Part shown: positions 247 to 23,740 of the stretch, in pieces
Position numbering within the stretch: position 1 is the first letter of the stretch
Layout: each line of letters starts with the position of its first letter
UHGV virus genome: UHGV-0045959
DNA: 23,790 nt
Reading direction: 5' to 3' (one strand)
Source of the DNA: a virus
Translations under genes and position numbers: made by a program
The notes under the pieces: model-generated
The model's database searches: none
What the model was told of the DNA's origin: nothing
The model's input: only the letters and a program-made list of their open reading frames with translations

Positions 247-1227
247 TTATAACGTCACTCCGCCTTTTAGTGGATTCAGAGCGACGGCATTTTGCAGATA
301 GTCAGGCGCAAGGTGCGCATAGGCCATCGTCTGCTGAATGCTCGCATGTCCCAGAATCTGTTGCAGTGCGATTATATTGCCCCCATTCATCATGAAATGG
401 CTTGCGAATGTATGCCGCAGGATGTGGGTTGCCTGATTGGGTGGTATATCAGGTTTCACTCTGCGTAAAATCCCGCAAAATTTCTCATAATCAACTTTGA
501 ATAATTTGGCGCTGGCCTCCTCTTTAACTTTTTTCTCCAGTTCCTCAGAAATCGGCACGGTTCGCTTTTTACCGTTTTTGGTTTTCAGGAAGGTAACCCT
601 GCAATTTGTAATCTGTGCTGGTTTTAGCGTGGCAACTTCCGTCCATCTTCCTCCGGTGCTCAGACATAAAAGCGCGACAAGTAAGTCATCACCAGCCAAA
701 ACATTTAACAGTTTTTCGATTTCTGCTTTTTCCAGGAACGTCATTTCAGGGTTGGCCTCCGCCAGTGGCGGCAGTCCGTGAATTGGGTGTTGCCCGGAAA
801 ATTCATCCAATTGAATTAATTTTGTGAACATGCCGGATAATCGGTACATGTCACGGTTTATCGTTGCGGCACTGATACCATCACGTAGTCGCATGGAACG
901 ATAATCCATCAAAGCCCTTTTGCTCATCCTGCTCACTGGTATATCACCTATGCCGCTGATGGTTTTGAGTAGATGATTAAACTCTTTTGTTCCATGCTCG
1001 TGGTTTTGCCCGTGATATTTCCACCAGATGTCCAGCAACTCACTCAAAGTCCGGCGGTCTGCTCGCTGGCCTCCCCATTCTTTCTGACTGGCATTGGCGA
1101 TTGTGTATCGCTCAAATGCTAGTGCTTCAGCTTTTCTTTCGAATTTCCTGCGGATGCGTTTTCCGTCGCGACCGCGAGGTCTAATGTCCACTTCATAGCG
1201 ACCATCATCGAGCTTCTTAATTGCCAT
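247..1227 (-). CDS. int: tyrosine integrase (P2 Int family)
   Basis: ORF 247..1257; probable start at the internal MAIKKLDDGRYEV (about 326 aa). C-terminal catalytic region ATHILRHTFASHF...LGHASIQQTMAYAH shows the H-x-x-R...Y pattern of tyrosine recombinases. Lies at the edge of the phage next to the repressor. Confidence 0.9.
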   Translation of the reverse strand: MAIKKLDDGRYEVDIRPRGRDGKRIRRKFERKAEALAFERYTIANASQKEWGGQRADRRTLSELLDIWWKYHGQNHEHGTKEFNHLLKTISGIGDIPVSRMSKRALMDYRSMRLRDGISAATINRDMYRLSGMFTKLIQLDEFSGQHPIHGLPPLAEANPEMTFLEKAEIEKLLNVLAGDDLLVALLCLSTGGRWTEVATLKPAQITNCRVTFLKTKNGKKRTVPISEELEKKVKEEASAKLFKVDYEKFCGILRRVKPDIPPNQATHILRHTFASHFMMNGGNIIALQQILGHASIQQTMAYAHLAPDYLQNAVALNPLKGGVTL

Positions 1228-1296
1228 AAGAAAGCCCTCCGGCGCTGTATTCACCATCTTGGTAGCAAATGGTGAAAATGTAATCTTTATATAGAG

Positions 1297-3483: not shown

Positions 3484-3755
3484 GTATTCGTATTGAAATT
3501 GGCGAACGTTATGTCGTTACCAGTGACAGCTTTCAGTTTATTCTCCACGAGAAAAAGAGAGCGGAAAGCGGTAAAAACGCCGGTCAGGAATGGCTGGCGG
3601 TGGTTGGTTATTACCCGAAATTAGGCCAGCTCGTTTCCGGCCTGATGCATCACGATATTCTGACCGGAAGCGCAAAATCTTTTGCTGATTTAAACGCGCA
3701 GGTTGAGCAACTCAGCAAGCGTTGTTCAGAGGCTTTTGGCTCATATGGCCGTTAA
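3480..3755 (+). CDS. hypothetical early protein (91 aa)
   Basis: ATGA overlap with the preceding ORF at 3480..3483; its 3' end overlaps the A start. Confidence 0.55.
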   Translation: MSIRIEIGERYVVTSDSFQFILHEKKRAESGKNAGQEWLAVVGYYPKLGQLVSGLMHHDILTGSAKSFADLNAQVEQLSKRCSEAFGSYGR

Positions 3756-6024
3756 AGCCTCCGGGCGTTTTGTCCCTCCGTCAGCATTTACCGCAGGCAC
3801 CGGTAAGGCGTTTACCGGTGCTTATGCATGGAACGCGCCACGCGAGGCTGTCGGGCGCGAAAGACCTCTTACACGTGACGAGATGCGTCAGGTGCAAGGT
3901 GTTTTATCCACGATTAACCGCCTGCCTTACTTTTTGCGCTCGCTGTTTACTTCACGCTATGACTACATCCGGCGCAATAAAAGCCCGGTGCACGGGTTTT
4001 ATTTCCTCACATCTACTTTTCAGCGTCGTTTATGGCCGCGCATTGAGCGTGTGAATCAGCGCCATGAAATGAACACCGACGCGTCGTTGCTGTTTCTGGC
4101 AGAGCGTGACCACTATGCGCGCCTGCCGGGAATGAATGACAAGGAGCTGAAAAAGTTTGCCGCCCGTATCTCATCGCAGCTTTTCATGATGTATGAGGAA
4201 CTCTGCGATGCATGGGTTGATGCGCATGGTGAAAAAGAATCGCTGTTTACGGATGAGGCGCAGGCTCACCTGTATGGTCATGTTGCTGGCGCTGCACGTG
4301 CTTTCAATATTTCCCCGCTCTACTGGAAAAAATACCGTAAAGGACAGATGACCACGAGGCAGGCATATTCTGCCATTGCCCGCCTGTTTAACGATGAGTG
4401 GTGGACTCATCAGCTTAAAGGCCAGCGTATGCGCTGGCATGAGGCGTTACTGATAGCTGTCGGGGAGGTCAATAAAGACCGTTCTCCTTATGCCAGTAAA
4501 CACGCCATTCGTGATGTGCGTGCGCGCCGCCAGGCAAATCTGGAATTTCTTAAATCGTGTGACCTTGAAAACAGGGAAACCGGCGAGCGCATCGACCTTA
4601 TCAGTAAGGTGATGGGCAGTATTTCTAATCCTGAAATTCGCCGGATGGAGCTGATGAACACCATTGCCGGTATTGAGCGTTACGCCGCCGCAGAGGGTGA
4701 TGTGGGGATGTTTATCACGCTGACCGCGCCGTCAAAGTATCACCCGACACGTCAGGTCGGAAAAGGCGAAAGTAAAACCGTTCAGCTTAATCACGGCTGG
4801 AACGATGAGGCATTTAATCCAAAGGATGCGCAGCGTTATCTCTGCCGTATCTGGAGCCTGATGCGCACGGCATTCAAGGATAATGATTTACAGGTCTACG
4901 GTTTGCGAGTCGTCGAGCCACACCACGACGGAACGCCGCACTGGCATATGATGCTTTTTTGTCATCCACGCCAGCGTAACCAGATTATCGAAATCATGCG
5001 TCGCTATGCGCTCAAAGAGGATGGCGACGAAAGAGGAGCCGCGCGAAACCGTTTTCAGGCAAAACACCTTAACCGGGGCGGTGCTGCGGGATATATCGCG
5101 AAATACATTTCAAAAAACATCGACGGCTATGCACTGGATGGTCAGCTCGATAACGACACCGGCAGGCCGCTGAAAGACACTGCAGCGGCTGTTACCGCAT
5201 GGGCGTCAACGTGGCGCATTCCGCAATTTAAAACGGTTGGCCTGCCGACAATGGGGGCTTACCGTGAACTACGCAAATTGCCTCGCGGCGTCAGCATTGC
5301 TGATGAGTTTGACGAGCGCGTCGAGGCTGCACGCGCCGCCGCAGACAGTGGTGATTTTGCGCTGTATATCAGCGCGCAGGGCGGGGCAAATGTCCCGCGC
5401 GATTGTCAGACTGTCAGGGTCGCCCGTAGTCTGTCGGATGACGTTAACGAGTACGAGGAAGAAGTCGAGAGAGTGGTCGGCATTTACGCGCCGCATCTCG
5501 GCGCGCGTCATATTCATATCACCAGAACGACGGACTGGCGCATTGTGCCGAAAGTTCCGGTCGTTGAGCCTTTGACTTTAAAAAGCGGCATCGCCGCGCC
5601 TCGGAGTCCTGTCAATAACTGTGGAAAGCTCACCGGTGGTGATACTTCGTTACCGGCTCCCACACCTTCTGAGCACGCCGCAGCAGTGCTAAATCTGGTT
5701 GATGACGGTGTTATCGAATGGAATGACCCGGAGGTCGTGAGGGCGCTCAGGGGTGCATTAAAACACGGTCGGAGAACGCCAGGTCGTCAGCAAAGAAACG
5801 GAAGCCCGTTAAAACCACATGAAATTGCACCATCGGCCAGACTGACCCGGTCTGAACGATTGCAAATCACCCGTATCCGTGTTGACCTTGCTCAAAACGG
5901 TATCAGGCCGCAGCGATGGGAGCTTGAGGCGTTAGTACGCGGTGCGATCGTCAATTACAATGAAAAGCAATTTTCATATCCTAGTGTAGATGAGTGGAGT
6001 GGGTTTTCTGGTTATTCAGAGTAA
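3745..6024 (+). CDS. A: rolling-circle replication initiator endonuclease (P2 A family)
   Basis: ORF 3703..6024; likely start at the in-frame ATG 3745 (MAVKASGRF) just before the upstream stop. Contains the HWHMMLF-type motif and GYIAKYISKN segment typical of P2 A-like initiators; about 760 aa. Confidence 0.9.
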   Translation: MAVKASGRFVPPSAFTAGTGKAFTGAYAWNAPREAVGRERPLTRDEMRQVQGVLSTINRLPYFLRSLFTSRYDYIRRNKSPVHGFYFLTSTFQRRLWPRIERVNQRHEMNTDASLLFLAERDHYARLPGMNDKELKKFAARISSQLFMMYEELCDAWVDAHGEKESLFTDEAQAHLYGHVAGAARAFNISPLYWKKYRKGQMTTRQAYSAIARLFNDEWWTHQLKGQRMRWHEALLIAVGEVNKDRSPYASKHAIRDVRARRQANLEFLKSCDLENRETGERIDLISKVMGSISNPEIRRMELMNTIAGIERYAAAEGDVGMFITLTAPSKYHPTRQVGKGESKTVQLNHGWNDEAFNPKDAQRYLCRIWSLMRTAFKDNDLQVYGLRVVEPHHDGTPHWHMMLFCHPRQRNQIIEIMRRYALKEDGDERGAARNRFQAKHLNRGGAAGYIAKYISKNIDGYALDGQLDNDTGRPLKDTAAAVTAWASTWRIPQFKTVGLPTMGAYRELRKLPRGVSIADEFDERVEAARAAADSGDFALYISAQGGANVPRDCQTVRVARSLSDDVNEYEEEVERVVGIYAPHLGARHIHITRTTDWRIVPKVPVVEPLTLKSGIAAPRSPVNNCGKLTGGDTSLPAPTPSEHAAAVLNLVDDGVIEWNDPEVVRALRGALKHGRRTPGRQQRNGSPLKPHEIAPSARLTRSERLQITRIRVDLAQNGIRPQRWELEALVRGAIVNYNEKQFSYPSVDEWSGFSGYSE

Positions 6025-6233
6025 TAAACATAATGTTTTAGATTGGTTGCATAATGGTAAGGTTGCTGTTTATCTGTATATGTTAATATGATTACGCTAC
6101 GTACAAACAATCGACATTTCTTTTTTTCTATATATTAATATTGATGATTTTACTGGTGGTACAATAAGTCTATGTTGAAATTCGAGAATTGTATTATTAA
6201 CAATAAAAACTGGTTCTTTTTATTATACAAGGA

Positions 6234-6315
6234 NNNNNNNNNNNNNNNNNNNNNNNNNNNNNNNNNNNNNNNNNNNNNNNNNNNNNNNNNNNNNNNNNNN
6301 NNNNNNNNNNNNNNN
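6234..6315. other. assembly gap (run of N) inside the A-cos cargo island
   Basis: 82 consecutive N; the stop codon of the 827-aa gene lies 11 nt to its right. Confidence 0.99.
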
Positions 6316-6326
6316 TCTTTTACTGT

Positions 6327-8810
6327 TTAACGAGGGTTTCGCGTATAGGTTTCAACTATGTCTGATGCACGTAATTTACATGTGATCAATTGTTCTCTTA
6401 TAAATATCTCATCGTGTCGTTTATCACTTGTACAAATGGCCGTGATAAAACTGAGGATAGATGCTTTAAAACGTTCAAGATCATTTATGGTCATTATTCG
6501 AGACCCTTCGTTTAGTGTTGCGGCATATTCAGGCATATTAGAGTGATGTATCATTATAGGTGTGGCGGTAGCAGTTTGATCATACATGTTTCTGAACCAT
6601 GCACCCGACCCATTTAACTGATTGCAGTCATGCTTACTTATTCTTTCTGCGGTTGCTCCATTTTTGCATTCAATTACTAGATAATTGTTTTCTCCCATTG
6701 CCCATAAATTGTCAGGTCCTTTACCTGTATCATTTTCTGGCCGTTGGCTACGAAAACCGACCAAATATGCAACTTTTTCGATAGCATCTTCGAAGGGATT
6801 CGATGTGCCCTCGGAGAAAATAAGGTTTTCTATTATTGAATTAGTATGCACAACGACTTGATTGGCCGATTCAAAATTACTTCTGAGATAGGAGCTACAT
6901 TCCCTGGCCTGTTCAAGTGCCGCACCATTAAGTCTATTATATGTTACGCCGATTAGTGGTTTTAATACCCGATAGTTATCGTTTGATGCAGACTGAAGCA
7001 ATATCTGAGCTTCAGATTTGTCATATAAGTTTACATATTCCGCAGCATGTTCTTTTAGATAACCCTTATAAACTTTGTCAGCTGTACTACTATCATTTTT
7101 TAGAGTTAAAGCGGCTTGTTGAAACATATTTCGTGATGCTAAGTCATATGCCAATCTTTTATTTATAGTATGCTGGTCAATCTGCTTATTTTCCAATGTT
7201 AAGCCAGTCAATATACCTTTGCTTTTTGAGACCCAGTCAGAATTGCGTAACAGACAATAATCAAGAGCACCTTTGATTGAATCAATAGTTGTATCCGGCA
7301 GTATCGATACCAATTGCTGTGAAAGTTGAATTTGTGCTTTCGTTGCTGGAGAAAACCTTTCTAAGGAGGAGCCAAGGAAAACAGCGCCATTTAATGCTTT
7401 GCCAAGTAAGATCACTCCGCAGAAGTCGTCGCTTGATCTCACTCCTCGCCCCATTCCTTGTTCAATTTTCTGGATAATTTCATCTTTGGTTTTTTCGCTT
7501 CCAAGCAATAAGCTTTGTGAGACTTTATCTATTAGTCTACGAACGTCAGGAAGTCCATCTATTACTAATAGACGACATGCGGTATTTGGTAAATCAATAC
7601 CATCATATCTATTAACTAGGACTACTAAGCCAACATGTTGTGTCCTTAATTCTTGTACACCTTGATAAATTGTATTTTTATCTAATATTCTGTCTGCAAC
7701 ATCTTGCCAAAATCTAGTTCTGTAATCGGATGGTACAATTACAACAACATTATGTTTGGAGGATATCTCCTTGCACATAGCTTTGATATCTACATCAGAA
7801 AGACTAGGGTTTATAACCTGAGGCATTAGTATCATTCTATCACCAATATCACCAATTGTTTTTGGTGTTATCGGATTAGAGAGTGATTCATCCGTTATTC
7901 CGAAGTGGCTCGCTAGAATGGATTCATCGACAAGAGTAGCTGTCATGAATATTTTTCTTCTTGCGTTTGATAGGCTTGGGATCATTTGGATTGGTATGCA
8001 ATGAGGTGATATCTCTATTTTGGAAGCACTTACAACGCATTTCGATAATATTAGATTGTCTTTTATTAATGGCCATTTGAAACTCAAGTCATCATGGTCT
8101 TTATTTTCTAACAAGATTGTCATTATATCATTTATGCTTTCTTGCCATTTCCAAAATGGAACTCTCACATAAGCATTTCTATCGCCGGATTTTATCTCTA
8201 GTGTTTTTGCACCAGCTTGTGTCATTAGTGAATTTTCAAAAATTCTGAATAATTTATCATAGGCAGGGTTGTTTTTTTGAATGCTAATGGAGAATTGTTC
8301 TTCAATTGAAGAAAGGCAAGCGTGAGCATCGTCAATTATTATAGAACCTATTGGTATTCTTTGTCCATCATCTCCAACGCCAAATGCAGAACGTCCATTA
8401 ACCACTTTGAATATATTTGTAACTAAAATTTCTTTACCTGCAATAAATTTGGGGGACCTCTCATCTTGAGTTACAGGTATACCAAGTTGATTAGCCTCCA
8501 AAACCACTTGCTCAACTAGATAGTTGTCAGGAACAACATATACAGCGGGACCTTCTCCTTCATTTATACAGCTTTTAAGAATGATTAACCCAACTGAAGT
8601 TTTACCGCTTCCGGTATTCATTTTTATTACATTGGTTGGGCTTCTCCTTGCTTCATACCATTTTTCCCAGACCTCTGATTGCACATCTCGAGGGTATTGA
8701 AATTTGGTGTCTTTGCTCGGTAGAGCTGTAAATATATCTCGCGGTGGAATCGCTGTGTCGCTATTTACACTGGGCGAAAGCTTGGTTAAATCAAGGAAAA
8801 AACCAGACAT
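6327..8810 (-). CDS. SF2 helicase fused to a C-terminal PD-(D/E)xK-like nuclease module; candidate single-protein anti-phage defence gene
   Basis: 827-aa ORF with GAGGA Shine-Dalgarno 7 nt upstream of the ATG. Helicase motifs in order: I MNTGSGKTS (aa 64-72), II IIIDDAH (aa 157-163), III MTATL, V YDGIDLP, VI QGMGRGVR (aa 451-458). C-terminal GPD (aa 698-700) followed 14 residues later by VIECK (aa 712-716). Markedly AT-rich compared with flanking phage genes. Confidence 0.8.
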   Translation of the reverse strand: MSGFFLDLTKLSPSVNSDTAIPPRDIFTALPSKDTKFQYPRDVQSEVWEKWYEARRSPTNVIKMNTGSGKTSVGLIILKSCINEGEGPAVYVVPDNYLVEQVVLEANQLGIPVTQDERSPKFIAGKEILVTNIFKVVNGRSAFGVGDDGQRIPIGSIIIDDAHACLSSIEEQFSISIQKNNPAYDKLFRIFENSLMTQAGAKTLEIKSGDRNAYVRVPFWKWQESINDIMTILLENKDHDDLSFKWPLIKDNLILSKCVVSASKIEISPHCIPIQMIPSLSNARRKIFMTATLVDESILASHFGITDESLSNPITPKTIGDIGDRMILMPQVINPSLSDVDIKAMCKEISSKHNVVVIVPSDYRTRFWQDVADRILDKNTIYQGVQELRTQHVGLVVLVNRYDGIDLPNTACRLLVIDGLPDVRRLIDKVSQSLLLGSEKTKDEIIQKIEQGMGRGVRSSDDFCGVILLGKALNGAVFLGSSLERFSPATKAQIQLSQQLVSILPDTTIDSIKGALDYCLLRNSDWVSKSKGILTGLTLENKQIDQHTINKRLAYDLASRNMFQQAALTLKNDSSTADKVYKGYLKEHAAEYVNLYDKSEAQILLQSASNDNYRVLKPLIGVTYNRLNGAALEQARECSSYLRSNFESANQVVVHTNSIIENLIFSEGTSNPFEDAIEKVAYLVGFRSQRPENDTGKGPDNLWAMGENNYLVIECKNGATAERISKHDCNQLNGSGAWFRNMYDQTATATPIMIHHSNMPEYAATLNEGSRIMTINDLERFKASILSFITAICTSDKRHDEIFIREQLITCKLRASDIVETYTRNPR

Positions 8811-8870
8811 TTTTTATCCTCTTACAGGTACATTAGTTTAATTGTTAACGCAGAATTATCATTACCATAA

Positions 8871-8900
8871 CTTGCATTAAGTTGCATTACATTGCATTCA
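8871..8900. repeat. three tandem 10-bp repeats containing TTGCATT
   Basis: cTTGCATTaa / gTTGCATTac / aTTGCATTca at 8871..8900, 61-90 bp upstream of the 827-aa gene start and about 95 bp from cos. Confidence 0.6.
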
Positions 8901-8993
8901 TAAACGTTAGCTAGGGGCGAAGTCTGAGGTTTGATGGGCTATGGTGTCCCCTTTAATACGAGGTTGCATCAAAACCGCCCCATGAAGCGGGCG

Positions 8994-9012
8994 GGCGAGG
9001 CGGGGAAAGCAC
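8994..9012. other. cos: cos site (P2-type 19-nt cohesive-end sequence)
   Basis: GGCGAGGCGGGGAAAGCAC matches the P2 cohesive-end sequence as I recall it; located upstream of the Q/P packaging genes as in P2. Confidence 0.75.
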
Positions 9013-9181: not shown

Positions 9182-10216
9182 TCAGCCGTTGTCAGTGTCC
9201 AGTGAGTAGTTTTTAAAGCGGATGACCTCCTGACCGAGCCAGCCGTTTATCTCGCGGATCCTGTCCTGTAGCGGGATAAGCTCATTGCGGACAAAGACCT
9301 TTGCCACTTTCTCAATATCTCCCAGTGACCCGACGTTCTCCGGCTTGCCGCCCATCAACTGAAAGGGGATGCGGTGCGCGTCCAGCAGGTCAGCGGCGCT
9401 GGCTTTTTTGATATTAAAAAAATCGTCCTTCGTTGCCACTTCACTGAGCGGGATAATTTTAATGCCGTCAGCTTTCCCCTGCGGGGCATAGAGAAACAGA
9501 TTTTTAAAGTTGTTGCGGCCTTTCGACTTAACCATGTTTTCGCGAAGCATTTCGATATCGTTGCGGTCCTGCACGGCATCGGTGACGTACATGATATATC
9601 CGGCATGAGCGCCGTTTTCGTAATACTTGCGGCGGAACAGCGTGGCTGACTCATTCAGCCAGGCAGAGTTAAGGGCGCTCAGATATTCTGGCAGGCCGTA
9701 CAGCTCCTGATTGATATCCGGCTCCAGCAGGTGAAACACGGAGCCGGGCGTGAAAGGTGTCGGCTCGTTGAAGGACGGCACCCACCAGTAAACATCCTCC
9801 TCCACGCCACGACGGGTATATTTTGCCGGTGAGGTTTCCAGTCTGATGACCTTACCGGTGGTGCTGTAACGCTTTTCCAGAAACGCATTACCGAACACCA
9901 GAAAATCCAGCACAAAGCGGCTGAAATCCTGCTGGGAAAGCCACGGATGCGGGATAAATGTTGAGGCCAGAATATTACGTTTGACGTAAATCGGTGAGCT
10001 GTGATGCACGGCAGCACGCAGGCTTTTTGCCAGACCGGTAAAGCTGACCGGTGGTTCATACCATCTGCCGTTACTGATGCACTCGACGTAATCCAGAATG
10101 TCACGGCGGTCGAGTACCGGTACCGGCTCGCCAAAGGTGAATGCTTCCATTTTCGGGGCGCTGGCGGTCATTTTTTTGGCCGCAGGTTGCGGTGTTTTCC
10201 CTTTTTTCTTGCTCAT
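9182..10216 (-). CDS. Q: portal protein (gpQ)
   Basis: 344 aa, identical in size to P2 gpQ; first gene clockwise of cos, co-oriented with the terminase; start overlaps the P stop by 1 nt. Confidence 0.9.
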   Translation of the reverse strand: MSKKKGKTPQPAAKKMTASAPKMEAFTFGEPVPVLDRRDILDYVECISNGRWYEPPVSFTGLAKSLRAAVHHSSPIYVKRNILASTFIPHPWLSQQDFSRFVLDFLVFGNAFLEKRYSTTGKVIRLETSPAKYTRRGVEEDVYWWVPSFNEPTPFTPGSVFHLLEPDINQELYGLPEYLSALNSAWLNESATLFRRKYYENGAHAGYIMYVTDAVQDRNDIEMLRENMVKSKGRNNFKNLFLYAPQGKADGIKIIPLSEVATKDDFFNIKKASAADLLDAHRIPFQLMGGKPENVGSLGDIEKVAKVFVRNELIPLQDRIREINGWLGQEVIRFKNYSLDTDNG

Positions 10217-11988
10217 CAGTAAAACTCCAGAATGGTGGATGTCAGCGGGGTGCTGATACCGGCGGTGAGTGGCTCATTTAACAGGGCGTGCATGGTCGCC
10301 CAGGCGAGGTCGGCGTGGCTGGCTTCCTCGCTGCGGCTGGCCTCATACGTGGCGCTGCGTCCGCTGCTGGTCATGGTCTTGCGGATAGCCATAAACGAGC
10401 TGGTGATGTCGGTGGCGCTGACGTCATATTCCAGACAGCCACGGCGGATGACGTCTTTTGCCTTGAGCACCATTGCGGTTTTCATTTCCGGTGTGTAGCG
10501 GATATCGCGCGCGGCGGGATAGAACGAGCGCACGAGCTGGAACACGCCGACACCGAGGCCGGTGGCATCAATACCGATGTATTCGACGTTGTATTTTTCG
10601 GTGAGTTTGCGGATGGATTCCGCCTGAGTGGCAAAGTCCATGCCTTTCCACTGGTGACGCTCAAGTATTCTGAATTTGCCACCGGCCACCACCGGCGGTG
10701 CCAGTACCACGCATCCGGCGCTGTCGCCACGGTGTGACGGGTCGTAACCAATCCATACCGGGCGGGAGCCGAACGGATTCGCGGCAAACGGCGCATAGTC
10801 TTCCCATTCTTCCAGCGTGTCGACCATGCAGCGTTGCAGCTCCTCGAACGGGAACACCGACGCCTTGTCGTCAACAAATTCACACATGAACAGGTTTTTA
10901 AAATCGTCGGCGCTGTTTTCACGTTTGAGCTGCTCAATGTCGAACAGCGTGCAGCCGCCTTTCAGCGCGTCCTCAATGGTGACAATCTGCCGCCACTGGC
11001 CGTCTGCACAGAGAAGCCCACCGGCAAGGGCGTTATGACTGACGTCGATTTCCACGCGTTCGGCGGCGCTGGCGCGTCCCCGGTTGAACAGTTCACCCGA
11101 CCAGAACGGGTAGGCGTCGTGCGCCAGCGTGGACGGGGTGGAGAAATAGGTCGAACGCAGGTGACTCTGTGAGGCCATACCTGATGCCACCTTACGCAGT
11201 ACCTGAAAATTCGGGATCCAGAAAATCTCGTCGACGTACAGGTCGCCGTTATGGCTCTGCGCGGTGTTGGAGTTGGTGCCGAGAAAAATCAGTTTTGCGC
11301 CGTTATTGCCCAGGACAATCGGGTCACCGGTCAGGTCAACGTCAACCAGCCGGGCAAAGGCGATGATGTATTCGCGGAACACATACGCCTGCGTTTTACT
11401 GGCCGACAGAAAAATCTGGTTATGACCGGTTTTCAGGGCGCGCAGCAGCGCCTCGCGGGAAAAATAAAACGTCGCGCCAATCTGGCGGGATTTCAGGATA
11501 TCGCGGATGCGGTGCTCAAGCCCGGCGCGATACCAGTGCAACTGATATTCGAAAGACTGCTCAAAGAAAATCTGCTCCAGCTTTTCGATGGCCTCGTCAC
11601 TGAAAAAATTCTTTTTCGGTTTGCGCCGCCCGCCTTTGTTGCGGTTAGCGACGTTCGGATTAAGGTCTGCCTCGTTGCCGGTCTGACTGTAACGGTTGAC
11701 CCGTGCCAGTCGTTCAATCTGGCGTCCCAGCAGGTCAATTTCCTTGAAGTCACCGCCGGTTTTCTGCGGTTTGATGATGAGCTGGGTCAGCCGCGCTTCC
11801 AGACTCATTTCGACACGGCTGATGGGGGCAACGCTGTCCCAGCCGTCGCGCTGTTTCCAGCTCTGCACCGTCGGGCGTTTCATCTGCAACATGGCGGCAA
11901 TCTGCGGCACGGAAAATCCCTGCCAGTACAGCAGCGCCGCCTGACGACGCGGGTCGTGTAAAAGAGTGGTGTCTGTGGTGATGGTCAT
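10216..11988 (-). CDS. P: terminase large subunit (gpP)
   Basis: ORF 10216..12018; likely start at MTITTDTTLL (11988), about 590 aa as in P2 gpP. Confidence 0.9.
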   Translation of the reverse strand: MTITTDTTLLHDPRRQAALLYWQGFSVPQIAAMLQMKRPTVQSWKQRDGWDSVAPISRVEMSLEARLTQLIIKPQKTGGDFKEIDLLGRQIERLARVNRYSQTGNEADLNPNVANRNKGGRRKPKKNFFSDEAIEKLEQIFFEQSFEYQLHWYRAGLEHRIRDILKSRQIGATFYFSREALLRALKTGHNQIFLSASKTQAYVFREYIIAFARLVDVDLTGDPIVLGNNGAKLIFLGTNSNTAQSHNGDLYVDEIFWIPNFQVLRKVASGMASQSHLRSTYFSTPSTLAHDAYPFWSGELFNRGRASAAERVEIDVSHNALAGGLLCADGQWRQIVTIEDALKGGCTLFDIEQLKRENSADDFKNLFMCEFVDDKASVFPFEELQRCMVDTLEEWEDYAPFAANPFGSRPVWIGYDPSHRGDSAGCVVLAPPVVAGGKFRILERHQWKGMDFATQAESIRKLTEKYNVEYIGIDATGLGVGVFQLVRSFYPAARDIRYTPEMKTAMVLKAKDVIRRGCLEYDVSATDITSSFMAIRKTMTSSGRSATYEASRSEEASHADLAWATMHALLNEPLTAGISTPLTSTILEFY

Positions 11989-12161
11989 GAATACCTCGCC
12001 GTGATGAATACACGGCAAGGCTACTGAGTCGCGCCCCGCGATTCGCTAAGGTGCTGTTGTGTCAGTGATAAGCCATCCGGGACTGATGGCGGAGGATGCG
12101 CATCGTCGGGAAACTGATGCCGACATGTGACTCCTCTAATCACTATTCAGGACTCCTGACA
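11989..12161. promoter_or_regulatory. divergent late-promoter region between P and O
   Basis: 173-bp intergenic region between divergently transcribed P and O, where P2 has its Ogr-dependent late promoters. Small inverted repeat CCGTG-n7-CACGG at 11999..12015. No consensus element confirmed. Confidence 0.4.
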
Positions 12162-13074: not shown

Positions 13075-14148
13075 ATGCGCCAGGAAACCCGCTTTAAATT
13101 TAATGCCTACCTGTCCCGTGTTGCCGAACTGAACGGCATCGACGCCGGTGATGTGTCGAAAAAATTCACCGTTGAACCGTCGGTCACCCAGACCCTGATG
13201 AACACCATGCAGGAGTCCTCTGACTTTCTGACCCGCATCAACATTGTGCCGGTCAGCGAAATGAAAGGGGAAAAAATTGGTATTGGTGTCACCGGCTCCA
13301 TCGCCAGCACCACCGACACCGCCGGTGGCACCGAGCGTCAGCCGAAGGACTTCTCGAAGCTGGCGTCAAACAAGTACGAATGCGACCAGATTAACTTCGA
13401 TTTTTATATCCGCTACAAAACGCTTGACCTGTGGGCGCGTTATCAGGATTTCCAGCTCCGTGTCCGTAACGCCATTATCAAACGTCAGGCTCTTGATTTA
13501 ATCATGGCCGGTTTTAACGGTGTGAAGCGTGCCGAAACCTCTGACCGCAGCAGTAACCCGATGCTGCAGGATGTGGCGGTCGGCTGGCTGCAGAAATACC
13601 GCAATGAAGCCCCGGCGCGCGTGATGAGTAAGGTCACTGACGAGGAAGGCCGCACCACCTCTGAGGTTATCCGCGTGGGTAAGGGCGGTGATTATGCCAG
13701 CCTTGATGCACTGGTGATGGATGCGACCAACAACCTGATTGAGCCGTGGTATCAGGAAGACCCTGACCTTGTGGTGATTGTGGGGCGTCAGTTACTGGCG
13801 GACAAGTATTTCCCCATCGTTAACAAGGAGCAGGACAACAGCGAAATGCTGGCCGCTGACGTCATCATCAGCCAGAAACGCATCGGTAACCTGCCAGCGG
13901 TACGCGTCCCGTACTTCCCGGCGGATGCGATGCTCATCACGAAGCTGGAAAACCTGTCCATCTACTACATGGATGACAGCCATCGCCGCGTGATTGTGGA
14001 AAACCCGAAACTCGACCGCGTGGAGAACTACGAGTCAATGAACATTGATTACGTGGTGGAAGACTACGCCGCCGGTTGTCTGGTGGAAAAAATTAAGGTC
14101 GGTGATTTCTCCACACCGGCTAAGGCGACCGCAGAGCCGGGAGCGTAA
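13075..14148 (+). CDS. N: major capsid protein (gpN)
   Basis: 357 aa, same size and position as P2 gpN, directly after the scaffold gene. Confidence 0.9.
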   Translation: MRQETRFKFNAYLSRVAELNGIDAGDVSKKFTVEPSVTQTLMNTMQESSDFLTRINIVPVSEMKGEKIGIGVTGSIASTTDTAGGTERQPKDFSKLASNKYECDQINFDFYIRYKTLDLWARYQDFQLRVRNAIIKRQALDLIMAGFNGVKRAETSDRSSNPMLQDVAVGWLQKYRNEAPARVMSKVTDEEGRTTSEVIRVGKGGDYASLDALVMDATNNLIEPWYQEDPDLVVIVGRQLLADKYFPIVNKEQDNSEMLAADVIISQKRIGNLPAVRVPYFPADAMLITKLENLSIYYMDDSHRRVIVENPKLDRVENYESMNIDYVVEDYAAGCLVEKIKVGDFSTPAKATAEPGA

Positions 14149-20321: not shown

Positions 20322-20925
20322 TTCGCGCCTGCTGCCGACCGGCTCATCACCGCTTGAAGTTGCCGCCGCAAAAGCCTGTGCGGAAATTGAAAAAACGCCG
20401 GTCAGTATTCGTGAACTGTGGAACCCGGATACCTGTCCGGCAAATCTGCTGTCGTGGCTGGCGTGGTCATTTTCGGTTGACCGCTGGGATGATAAGTGGC
20501 CGGAAGCGACAAAACGCGCTGTTATCCGCGATGCGTATTTCATTCACTGCCATAAGGGCACTATAGGCGCAATCCGGCGTGTGGTGGAGCCGCTCGGCTA
20601 TCTGATTGAGGTGAGGGAGTGGTGGCAGCTCAACGAGGAACCGGGGACGTTCCGCATCGTTGTTGGCGTGCTTGAGCAGGGTATTACCGAGGAAATGTAT
20701 CAGGAGCTGGAGCGTCTCGTTGCTGATGCAAAACCTGCAAGCCGCCATCTGACGGGACTGGCTATCAGTTTAAGTACAACCGGCAACATTTTTGCCGGTG
20801 CGGGATGCTATCACGGCGACGCCCTGACGGTTTATCCCTACACCCCGGAGGCCATTATTGTCGGAGGGGATTATTTCCCGGCCTCGGCCATTCATTTAAT
20901 TGATAACCTGAGAGTAAACGCATGA
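20314..20925 (+). CDS. I: baseplate / tail-fibre attachment protein (gpI-like)
   Basis: 203 aa between J and the tail-fibre gene, overlapping both neighbours; somewhat longer than the P2 gpI size I recall. Confidence 0.8.
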   Translation: MSDSRLLPTGSSPLEVAAAKACAEIEKTPVSIRELWNPDTCPANLLSWLAWSFSVDRWDDKWPEATKRAVIRDAYFIHCHKGTIGAIRRVVEPLGYLIEVREWWQLNEEPGTFRIVVGVLEQGITEEMYQELERLVADAKPASRHLTGLAISLSTTGNIFAGAGCYHGDALTVYPYTPEAIIVGGDYFPASAIHLIDNLRVNA

Positions 20926-22217
20926 CAGTGAAATACTACGCCATTCTGACTAATCAGGGCGCAGCACGGCTGGCTAACGCGACGATGCTTGGCAGTAAGC
21001 TGAATCTGACGCAAATGGCCGTTGGTGATGCGAATGGTGTCTTGCCGACACCAGACCCGGCACAGACAAAACTGATTAATCAGAAACGCATTGCACCGCT
21101 GAATCTTCTGAGTGTTGACCCGAACAACCAGAGCCAGATTATTGCGGAGCAAATCATCCCTGAGAACGAGGGCGGATTCTGGATCCGTGAGATTGGGCTT
21201 TATGATGATGAAGGCGTACTCATTGCGGTGGCCAACTGCCCGGAAACGTACAAACCGCAGTTACAGGAAGGCAGTGGTCGTACCCAGACTATCCGCATGA
21301 TTCTGGTTGTCACGAATATCGAAGCCATCACGCTGAAAATCGACCCGTCGGTGGTACTGGCGACCCGTAAATATGTGGATGATGAAGTCCTGGAATTAAG
21401 GCTGTATGTGGATGACCAGATGAGAAACCACATTGCCGCACAGGATCCTCATACCCAGTATGCACAGAAACATAATCCGACATTTACCGGAGAACCAAAA
21501 GCCCCGACGCCTGCCGCAGGAAATAACACCACGCGGATTGCGACCACTGAGTTTGTTCAGGCCGCTATTACCGCTCTGATTAACGGCGCGCCAGCCACGC
21601 TGGACACACTGAAAGAAATTGCCGCAGCCATTAACAATGACCCGAAATTCAGCACCACTATTAACAATGCGCTGTCAGGTAAGCAGCCACTGGATGAGAC
21701 GCTGACTCATTTGAGCGGAAAGGATGTTGCCGGCCTTCTCGCATACCTTGGTTTGGGAGAAACGATAAATAGAGCCTCCAGAGCTATGCAGAAATCGGCT
21801 AATGGATCTGATATTTCTGATGTATCAGCCTTCCGAAATGCGCTCCAGTTAGGGACCGCTGCAACACGAGATGTTGGAGCAGATAATGCCTCGAAGTTAC
21901 TGGATTTAGACAGCTTCAGGTCAATGATGTCAGGTAATGGCTACATCTACATTCCATGCATTGCGACGACAGGAAACCCGGTGAAACTTATGTTGCAGTG
22001 GGGAACGGTGGCAACACAAAAGGGAGCTGATGCTGGATATGCCTTACCATTTGCTTTTCCCTATGCAGGCTTGTTTGCGACCGGAAACCGTGGAACATCT
22101 GGCTACAATGCCGCGATGAATGTGCGTATTGCCAGCAGAACGCATATCAGTATTCAGAACTGGTCGCCATCCGGAGAGGGCACCGAAGATTGTTGTTTTA
22201 TCGCGCTGGGGTATTAA
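20922..22217 (+). CDS. H: tail fibre protein (gpH-like): constant N-terminal part plus currently expressed variable C-terminal tip
   Basis: 431 aa with a conserved phage tail-fibre N-terminus (MTVKYYAILTNQGAARLANA...FWIREIGLYDDEGVLIAVAN); the C-terminal 150 aa lie inside the invertible segment. Shorter than P2 gpH. Confidence 0.88.
   Translation: MTVKYYAILTNQGAARLANATMLGSKLNLTQMAVGDANGVLPTPDPAQTKLINQKRIAPLNLLSVDPNNQSQIIAEQIIPENEGGFWIREIGLYDDEGVLIAVANCPETYKPQLQEGSGRTQTIRMILVVTNIEAITLKIDPSVVLATRKYVDDEVLELRLYVDDQMRNHIAAQDPHTQYAQKHNPTFTGEPKAPTPAAGNNTTRIATTEFVQAAITALINGAPATLDTLKEIAAAINNDPKFSTTINNALSGKQPLDETLTHLSGKDVAGLLAYLGLGETINRASRAMQKSANGSDISDVSAFRNALQLGTAATRDVGADNASKLLDLDSFRSMMSGNGYIYIPCIATTGNPVKLMLQWGTVATQKGADAGYALPFAFPYAGLFATGNRGTSGYNAAMNVRIASRTHISIQNWSPSGEGTEDCCFIALGY
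21736..21761. other. left recombination (crossover) site of the invertible tail-fibre segment (gix/cix/hix-like)
   Basis: 26-bp TTCTCGCATACC-TT-GGTTTGGGAGAA with imperfect dyad symmetry; its reverse complement matches the first 14 bp of the right site and 20 of 26 positions of the hix-type consensus as I recall it. Lies inside H at codons 272-280 (LLAYLGLGE). Confidence 0.7.
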
Positions 22218-22219
22218 GA

Positions 22220-22636
22220 ATGAATAAATTTTATAAAGGCTCTTTCTATCCGAAAGCACTAAAAGAGGTATATATCAGCGCCGGTTCATGGCCTGAAAAT
22301 GGCGTTGATGTTGATGATGAAACAATAGCAATTTACACAGGCGTAGCGCCAGAAGGCAAAACGCTGGGGGCTGATAAAAATGGTAATCCTGCATGGATTG
22401 ATATCCCGCCACTCTCCGCTGAACAACAGATTATTCAGGCTGAACAGAAAAGAACGGTATTGCGTTCAATGGCTGATAAGGAAATAGTCTGGAGACAGGA
22501 TGCTTTTGATGCGGAAATCGCGACGGCAGAAGAAACCGCCGCGTTGTCTGAATGGAAAAAATATCGGGTCTTACTGATGCGCGTTGATACATCAAATCCC
22601 GTCTGGCCTACGCCTCCGGGGGAGCAGGCCAATTGA
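22220..22636 (+). CDS. G: tail fibre assembly chaperone (gpG/Tfa-like) for the expressed fibre tip
   Basis: ORF 22190..22636; ATG at 22220 (MNKFYKGSFYP), 3 nt after the H stop. C-terminus VDTSNPVWPTPPGEQAN is the conserved Tfa C-terminal motif. Confidence 0.8.
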   Translation: MNKFYKGSFYPKALKEVYISAGSWPENGVDVDDETIAIYTGVAPEGKTLGADKNGNPAWIDIPPLSAEQQIIQAEQKRTVLRSMADKEIVWRQDAFDAEIATAEETAALSEWKKYRVLLMRVDTSNPVWPTPPGEQAN

Positions 22637-23228
22637 TATCCGGCGCGGTGCTGGTATCAGTTACCGTCACCGCGTCAATGTAATCCAGCACGACGTTAAG
22701 CCGGGTGGTTTCTGTCTGCGTCAGTTTTCGCCCGGCCTGCAATTTCAGTTGAATCAGATTAATGGAAGCCATTGCAGTATCAATCAGTGACTGTCGCTGT
22801 GTTTCTGCCGCGCCTACTGCGGCGCTATGCTGTGCCTCAGTATCTGTCACCCATTTCTCACCATCCCATTCATCGTATGGCGTTAACGGGGCGACAGTGG
22901 TTGTGTTTTCAGGGTAATCCCCCGGAGTGGTGATTTCTGCTGCCTCACGGGTTTCTGTGTTATAGACTGTCTCACCCCGATGGTCCGGCACGTACTCCCA
23001 CGCGGTCAGGTCGGCTGTGCGGCAAATTGCATAACCAGCCCGCCTTTCCCCGGGGGCATCAGTGCATGAATGTGCAGGAAGGCCAACGCCCACAGCCAGA
23101 TATTCGGTTGACGTGCAAAGGTATTCCCGCGTCTTATTATCGTAGCTGTGGACAACAACCTCTCCTGCAACTGTTGCCAGCCGCGATTCATTCAGCACCG
23201 CTGTAGTCATGGTTTTCTTGCTCATCAT
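22608..23228 (-). CDS. alternative tail fibre assembly chaperone (Tfa') serving the silent fibre tip
   Basis: 206 aa on the minus strand; C-terminus VTDTSTAPDINWPAPPEA parallels the C-terminus of the plus-strand Tfa; its 3' end overlaps that gene by 29 bp. Confidence 0.78.
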   Translation of the reverse strand: MMSKKTMTTAVLNESRLATVAGEVVVHSYDNKTREYLCTSTEYLAVGVGLPAHSCTDAPGERRAGYAICRTADLTAWEYVPDHRGETVYNTETREAAEITTPGDYPENTTTVAPLTPYDEWDGEKWVTDTEAQHSAAVGAAETQRQSLIDTAMASINLIQLKLQAGRKLTQTETTRLNVVLDYIDAVTVTDTSTAPDINWPAPPEA

Positions 23229-23740
23229 GCAGCCCTTACGATGTAGTTAAATGCAATGTTACGTGGCCTTGCATAACCCAGATACTGAATCCCCCAGGCT
23301 CCCACTGGAACGGGGTTCCAGATATGTTCTGTAGGTATACTTTTCGCTCTGAGAATATCTGAATTGGTTTCAGTTTTATCCCATCCCAGCAGGGCAATGT
23401 CGTTTACCGAAAACTGCACCACGCTGTCGGGTGATATATTGGCTTCCTGAACCAGATAAGAGCCTTTTTGCCACGACAACAACGTCCGGCTACTGTCCAC
23501 TCCGCGCCCGTCATCCCAGCCACGAATAAATTCACCACGTAAATCAGGCAATATATTTGTCGGGTAAGCCTTTGCCAGTTCCGGGTATTCTTCAGCAGAA
23601 AATGCCGCCCCGTTGCATTTCAGCCAGCCTGTTGGCAGTGTGGCTGAAGGCCACGGAACAGGCACACCAACGGGTAATACAGAGCCTTCTCCCAAACCAA
23701 CGTTTATGAAAATGCAGAGATAACGGGCAAGTGGCATCAT
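23225..23740 (-). CDS. alternative tail-fibre C-terminal cassette (Sv'-like), silent in this orientation
   Basis: 171-aa ORF containing a phage tail-collar-like motif LPDLRGEFIRGWDDGRG. Residues 14-18 VGLGE are encoded by the right crossover site and match the LGLGE junction in H. Only sequence downstream of the crossover would be fused to H after inversion. Confidence 0.75.
   Translation of the reverse strand: MMPLARYLCIFINVGLGEGSVLPVGVPVPWPSATLPTGWLKCNGAAFSAEEYPELAKAYPTNILPDLRGEFIRGWDDGRGVDSSRTLLSWQKGSYLVQEANISPDSVVQFSVNDIALLGWDKTETNSDILRAKSIPTEHIWNPVPVGAWGIQYLGYARPRNIAFNYIVRAA
23687..23712. other. right recombination (crossover) site of the invertible segment
   Basis: TTCTCCCAAACC-AA-CGTTTATGAAAA; first 14 bp identical to the reverse complement of the left site, central AA dinucleotide matching. 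Confidence 0.7.

Follow-up and report, generated by a model that had tools for sequence, protein, structure and literature searches.

Hna (short for helicase-nuclease abortive infection) is a stand-alone anti-phage protein, and its original description is reportedly that of Sather et al. (2023, Cell Host Microbe 31:343). The Hna of Sinorhizobium meliloti, an anti-phage protein by experiment, has its gene on the megaplasmid pSymA, and its monomer and dimer are represented in the Protein Data Bank (PDB) by entries 10UJ, 9YKJ and 9YHN (Hooper et al. 2026, PMC13381803). It is a Mg2+/Mn2+-dependent 3′-5′ exonuclease that acts on single-stranded DNA (ssDNA) and 3′ overhangs, with an ATPase activity that is stimulated by ssDNA and no unwinding activity; ATP inhibits it through dimerization, and the ssDNA-binding protein (SSB) of phage activates it (PMC13381803). 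Activation by phage SSB has been given for Hna from both S. meliloti and E. coli in a secondary citation (PMC10732053). Here we analyzed a stretch of 23,790 nucleotides of viral DNA, UHGV virus genome UHGV-0045959 (hereafter the window), in which one gene encodes a protein of 827 amino acids (aa) related to Hna. With a probability of about 0.9, we consider this hna-like gene to be an ortholog of Hna, that is, a stand-alone anti-phage gene carried as cargo in the hotspot of a P2-like E. coli prophage.

In RefSeq the window protein, WP_000012516.1, is named only "DEAD/DEAH box helicase family protein", and Pfam recognized in its 827 residues only generic superfamily 2 (SF2) helicase models, namely ResIII/DEAD at 40-172 and Helicase_C_2 at 400-471. 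NCBIfam matches to dnd_restrict_1 and Cas3g were discarded because they were far below threshold, with dnd_restrict_1 scoring 23 bits against a cut-off of 600 bits. PADLOC model PDLC04986 (PDC-S28) matched residues 6-825 of the window protein (E=0, 1054.6 bits), and S. meliloti Hna, whose sequence was taken for this test from the profile alignment to the PDB chain, matched the same model end to end with 1018.5 bits. Since both proteins match PDLC04986 over their full length, Hna and PDC-S28 are one family; PDC-S28 is a bioinformatic label without a mechanism, and the literature mention of it that we found is a survey. A phmmer search with the window protein against all PDB sequences returned a sole match, the 845-aa chain of the three S. 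meliloti entries (E=7e-121). A profile of 34 homologs, with identity to the window protein down to 51%, found Hna at E=6e-164, aligning profile positions 2-826 to positions 1-841 of the chain. The pairwise alignment of the two proteins was collinear over the full length with 31% global identity; by region, identity was 38% (first 200 residues), 24% (residues 461-690) and 27% (residues 691-827). Both are single polypeptides of about 830-845 aa with the same SF2 motifs and PD...ExK residues, a fold common to the whole protein and to the nuclease domain, no iron-sulfur (Fe-S) cluster and no partner gene, whereas they differ in setting, one lying on a P2-like E. coli prophage and the other on a megaplasmid. 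These matches make it very likely that the window protein is a member of the Hna family with a role in defense.

An earlier examination of this DNA (the sequence-only reading) had flagged positions 6327-7430, which hold the stop codon and residues 461-827, for a PD-(D/E)xK-like nuclease motif joined to a helicase. The motif, GPD-x11-VIECK at residues 698-716, is present in the translated open reading frame (ORF) with the claimed spacing, as G698-P699-D700 and V712-I713-E714-C715-K716, D700 and V712 being separated by exactly 11 residues. Of the catalytic residues named at that time, E714 and K716 (window positions 6669-6671 and 6663-6665) were right, while position 699, given as an aspartate, is a proline and the aspartate is D700 (6711-6713). 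By itself this pattern is weak evidence for a nuclease site: the protein has one occurrence of PD-x(8-25)-[DE]xK and 10 of the looser D-x(8-25)-[DE]xK. We take the motif as real because conservation, homology and structure back it. G698, P699, D700, E714, C715, K716 and N717 are invariant in the 34 homologs, and the alignment to Hna, together with the predicted fold, identifies the flagged motif as the active site of a nuclease joined to the helicase, as had been proposed. The hna-like protein, with its C-terminal P-D...E-x-K, belongs to the PD-(D/E)xK (restriction-endonuclease-like) superfamily, and the Q-motif R/Q pair, Walker A, DDAH and motif VI are all intact (Table 1). Experiments on S. 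meliloti Hna give these positions their roles, as P712, D713, E727 and K729 were mutated, with K729A abolishing exonuclease activity, and the R36A/Q39A mutant lost ATPase activity (PMC13381803). The ATP- and metal-binding residues mutated in that protein are all conserved in the window protein.

A structure prediction had been called for at the motif, and the AlphaFold2 model of the full window protein (predicted local distance difference test, pLDDT, 82.5) has the restriction-endonuclease-like fold there rather than lacking it. The nuclease core of the model is composed of a helix (670-683), three strands (687-689, 701-706 and 709-715), a second helix (726-742) and a further strand (748-754), with D700 at the start of the second core strand and E714/K716 at the end of the third. 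When the model was compared with the PDB by Foldseek, the best match was 9yhn, the Hna monomer (E=1e-58, template modeling score 0.68 over 835 columns), followed by the Hna dimer chains; the model thus superposes on the structure of Hna solved by cryo-EM. The match to the monomer and the disordered stretch at 612-629 reproduce the HEL1-HEL2-linker-NUC architecture of Hna. The window protein is thus an SF2 XPD/DinG-like ATPase with two RecA lobes and without an Fe-S cluster, from which a helical bundle and then a flexible linker lead to a PD-(D/E)xK nuclease at the C-terminus.

The stretch between helicase and nuclease motif, residues 461-690, had been left without a recognizable function and was suggested to be a sensing or regulatory domain. 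In the model, residues 461-470 form the last strand of RecA2 directly after motif VI, and the helices of residues 630-683 pack against the core of the nuclease. Along this stretch the alignment to S. meliloti Hna is collinear, yet no part of the protein is less conserved. When residues 461-827 were searched in 1.84 billion representative proteins, 912 matches reached E<=1e-3; in the 150 best of these 912, every full-length protein was about 820-845 aa long with the match at about 455-825, and the remainder were fragment-like. Because the full-length proteins among these 150 share the Hna layout, the 461-827 module does not appear to have been shuffled into other architectures. A separate sensor domain in 461-690 was therefore rejected, the stretch being helical, collinear with Hna, continuous with HEL2 and NUC, and confined to the Hna architecture. 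In the S. meliloti protein, a "network of alpha helices" is assigned to HEL2 and a long unstructured linker leads to NUC; rearrangement of the helices, together with the linker, gives the nuclease domain its mobility when the dimer is ATP-bound and auto-inhibited, and phage SSB is modeled at the dimer interface of the N-terminal HEL1 (PMC13381803). By homology, a mechanical regulatory role of residues 461-690 is plausible, so that the regulatory half of the earlier suggestion is retained and the dedicated sensor is not supported.

If the window protein works as S. meliloti Hna does, the ATP-bound protein would be held in uninfected cells as an auto-inhibited dimer whose nuclease domain is mobile and unproductive. 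Phage SSB would break the dimer and release the nuclease activity, and the D700/E714/K716 site would then degrade DNA in the 3′-5′ direction from single-stranded 3′ ends. The infected cell would die or arrest without releasing phage, which would protect the population of lysogens and, with it, the prophage. Abortive infection or the targeting of replication intermediates, rather than classical restriction-modification, had also been favored by the sequence-only reading, and the homology to Hna supports abortive infection.

Several observations weigh against the assignment to Hna or against carrying over its mechanism. Overall, identity to the characterized S. meliloti protein is only 31%, with 24-27% over the C-terminal half, and a consensus scan upstream of the hna-like gene gave no promoter standing out, promoter-like sites occurring at the chance rate. 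The dimerization-loop residues T30, D31 and P34 of S. meliloti Hna align to D34, T35 and Q38 and are not conserved, and the loop is of low confidence in the AlphaFold2 model (pLDDT <50 at 33-38). Because these residues differ, the details of auto-inhibition and trigger may be different here, and we have less confidence in them than in the family assignment; that dimer auto-inhibition and the SSB trigger hold in detail for the window ortholog is only moderately likely. The N-terminal loop of the window protein is also without the 7-residue insertion before motif I, in comparison with S. meliloti Hna, but it is kept within its own clade, as P23, R24, F27, L30, P31, K33, Y39 and P40 are invariant in the 34 homologs. 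Since this loop is so strongly conserved and yet unlike the T30/D31/P34 loop, there is a small chance that the enterobacterial P2-borne clade uses another interface for auto-inhibition or triggering, and senses a phage factor other than the T7-like SSB. Under the same proposal, the prophage might need to spare its own replication, because the rolling circle nicked by P2 gpA exposes 3′ ends and ssDNA.

The terminator-like sites found in the consensus scan numbered 6 against 2.4 expected, mostly in the cos region, with none at the ends of the hna-like gene. The window contains two runs of N, at 53-112 (60 bases) and at 6234-6315 (82 bases). In the otherwise identical locus of E. coli M217 only about 19 bases, ccacctccttaggaggtgg, stand in place of the latter, so the masking altered the length of the sequence at this place. 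These bases belong to a GC-rich hairpin, probably a terminator, that separates the hna stop codon from the end of gpA.

The 19-mer GGCGAGGCGGGGAAAGCAC between hna and the portal gene, which we take to be the cohesive end (cos) of P2, has one exact match in the window. This site at 8994-9012 adjoins the portal gene, in agreement with Rousset 2022 (PMC9122126). The cos-proximal locus between gpA and gpQ is a published defense hotspot of P2-like phages, where P2 itself carries old and tin (Rousset 2022, PMC9122126; Vassallo 2022, PMC9519451). The window cargo occupies the same position, from the replication endonuclease gene to cos and portal, and is likewise short and AT-rich, whereas it consists of hna instead of old/tin, retrons or the other systems reported there. 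Likeness to P2-like phage genomes starts again at about 8965, by which the right edge of the cargo was set. Beside the hna-like gene, we found no further credible ORF in 6025-8964, and RefSeq has none in the identical locus, so the system is a single gene without an obligatory partner. No methyltransferase ORF is present in the cargo or its flanks, consistent with the missing modification partner remarked on from the sequence. We found no literature placing Hna at the P2 hotspot; the main text of a 2026 survey of P2/P4 hotspots contains neither Hna nor PDC-S28, and the text of Vassallo 2022 (PMC9519451) describes no matching helicase-nuclease system.

Matches to the flanks alone were present in 2,154 of the 5,426 complete E. 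coli genomes; in 70 of the 5,426 (about 1.3%), a 100%-identical locus was present between genes annotated as "replication endonuclease" and "phage portal protein". In one E. coli genome, that of M217, the prophage adjoins cpxP, and the hna-like gene is annotated as WP_000012516.1. The gpA gene beside hna in M217 (L001, 4260-9125) is split by an insertion of ISEc12, an IS21-family element. The window has an intact gpA, so its prophage may still be able to replicate. In 50,697 phage records, tblastn gave a single match, at 30% identity, to a record (501,190 bases) that bears the name of a Salmonella enterica serovar Infantis strain; sequenced isolates of P2-like phages in this collection hence lack the hna-like gene. 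A homolog with 80% identity lies in Pectobacterium (CP051652.1; L002, 12476-14490), in an integrase island near Lamassu-type genes. That island contains a P4-type integrase gene, an Hcp gene and genes with MC3 and LmuB_C (Lamassu-type) domains. The Hna clade therefore moves between mobile-element contexts of different kinds, which fits a horizontally mobile defense gene.

Table 1. Positions of the hna-like gene, its domains and motifs, and the landmarks of the surrounding prophage (window coordinates; invariance refers to the 34 homologs)
Feature	Position	Strand	Basis	Counterpart in S. meliloti Hna (role)
Integrase	247..1257	-		
gpA-type replication endonuclease, 773 aa; left hotspot border	3703..6024	+	PHROG 91 'nicking at origin of replication', E=0; RefSeq 'replication endonuclease'	
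Variable cargo segment of P2 hotspot	6025..8964	.	GC 0.33-0.39 against about 0.55 in flanks; gpA ends at 6024	
hna-like gene, single-gene defense system (827 aa plus stop)	6327..8810	-	ORF; PADLOC PDC-S28; PDB Hna; Foldseek	Hna
Nuclease (NUC) domain, PD-(D/E)xK, residues 630-827	6330..6923	-		
Catalytic motif G698-P-D700...E714-C-K716	6663..6719	-	Aligned to Hna	P712/D713/E727 to P699/D700/E714 (nuclease metal ligands); K729 to K716 (nuclease)
Flexible helicase-nuclease linker, residues 612-629	6924..6977	-	No regular secondary structure; pLDDT <50 at 621-629	
All-helical bundle after RecA2, residues 471-611	6978..7400	-	Nine helices in AlphaFold2 model; collinear with Hna	
SF2 motif VI, Q451-G-M-G-R455-G-V-R458, end of RecA2	7437..7460	-	Q451, G452, G454, R455, R458 invariant; Pfam Helicase_C_2 400-471	
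SF2 motif II, D160-D-A-H163, DEAH-type	8322..8333	-	D160, D161, H163 invariant	DDAH, identical (motif II)
SF2 motif I (Walker A), N65-T-G-S-G-K70-T71	8598..8618	-	N65, T66, G67, G69, K70, T71 invariant; Pfam ResIII/DEAD	TGQGKT to T66-G-S-G-K70-T71 (Walker A)
Q-motif, R41...Q44	8679..8690	-	Pairwise mapping; invariant	R36/Q39 (ATP coordination)
19-mer GGCGAGGCGGGGAAAGCAC	8994..9012	+	One exact match in window; between hna and portal gene	
Portal gpQ; right hotspot border	9182..10216	-	PHROG 68 portal, E=3e-176	
Large terminase	10216..12018	-		
Major capsid	13075..14148	+		

Three other explanations of the gene were considered, and all of them are unlikely. The helicase core might be that of a DinG/XPD-type repair or replication helicase-nuclease, serving DNA metabolism of the prophage or host and not defense. 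After Hna, the nearest structural neighbors of the model are indeed XPD, DinG and CasDinG (E about 1e-10 to 1e-11), which share the helicase-core fold at 12-15% identity, and a secondary PADLOC match was to typeIV_DinG (E=2.6e-12), but the window protein departs from these proteins in its reduced Arch domain, its C-terminal PD-(D/E)xK nuclease and its lack of an Fe-S cluster. The four Fe-S cysteines of HD1 are absent, motif I (65-71) and motif II (160-163) enclosing no cysteine other than C81, and no Fe-S cluster is reported in Hna either (PMC13381803). The Hna paper compares Hna with the ExoDinG 3′-5′ exonucleases and draws a functional analogy to them (PMC13381803); S. meliloti Hna is nevertheless a defense protein by experiment. 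A housekeeping role is also at odds with the position of the gene, outside the conserved P2 gene set in a variable hotspot and with foreign GC content, and with its sparse distribution, as of 2,154 E. coli genomes with matching flanks only 70 carry it and the phage records contained the single 30%-identity match. We regard this explanation as very improbable.

Still less credit is given to an orphaned Res-type subunit from a Type III or Type ISP restriction enzyme that would cut in the classical way, as a restriction endonuclease dependent on sequence or modification. ResIII and DEAD, the Pfam models found in the window protein, are generic models of the SF2 N-lobe, and ResIII covers that lobe only; the NCBIfam score stays far under the cut-off of its model. 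The cargo holds no methyltransferase or any other ORF, so that the Mod gene that would neighbor a Type III Res is missing, the only full-length collinear match is to Hna, and in Foldseek the helicase core resembles XPD/DinG and not Type III Res. A fusion system of the Hachiman type (HamA nuclease with HamB helicase) or of the Nhi type shares the general logic of an SF2 helicase with a PD-(D/E)xK nuclease, and SSB or DNA damage triggers those systems, but it is hardly to be considered here, since no HamA/DUF1837, HamB or Nhi was among the PADLOC matches at E<=1, no DUF1837 was found in Pfam at E<=1, the domain order is helicase and then nuclease, and Hna is the sole solved homolog by sequence.

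With the assignment to Hna, WP_000012516.1 can be renamed as an anti-phage helicase-nuclease of the Hna family, with D700, E714 and K716 as catalytic and R41, Q44 and K70 as ATP-site residues, and Hna is documented as one cargo of the P2 gpA-gpQ hotspot. An E. coli ortholog with 31% identity to the solved protein is also a tractable subject for the generality of the SSB-triggered, ATP-restrained exonuclease mechanism. Beyond annotation the result is of little importance, as a standard defense-finder model detects the protein at E=0; the family, the catalytic motif, the structure, the mechanism and the P2 hotspot have all been published already, and the finding is correct but ordinary.

Two further regions of the window were noted. 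In the early prophage region, an ORF of 168 aa on the + strand (2163-2669) had no Pfam family at E<=0.001, and its RefSeq counterpart is a hypothetical protein. Toward the right end (20922-23740), the + strand carries a tail-fiber gene (431 aa, with a Phage_tail_fib N-terminus and a Gp53-like C-terminus) and a tail-fiber assembly gene, and the - strand carries a second assembly gene with Caudo_TAP (22608..23228) and an ORF with a Collar domain (23225..23740). This gene order is the layout of an invertible cassette of alternative tail fibers.

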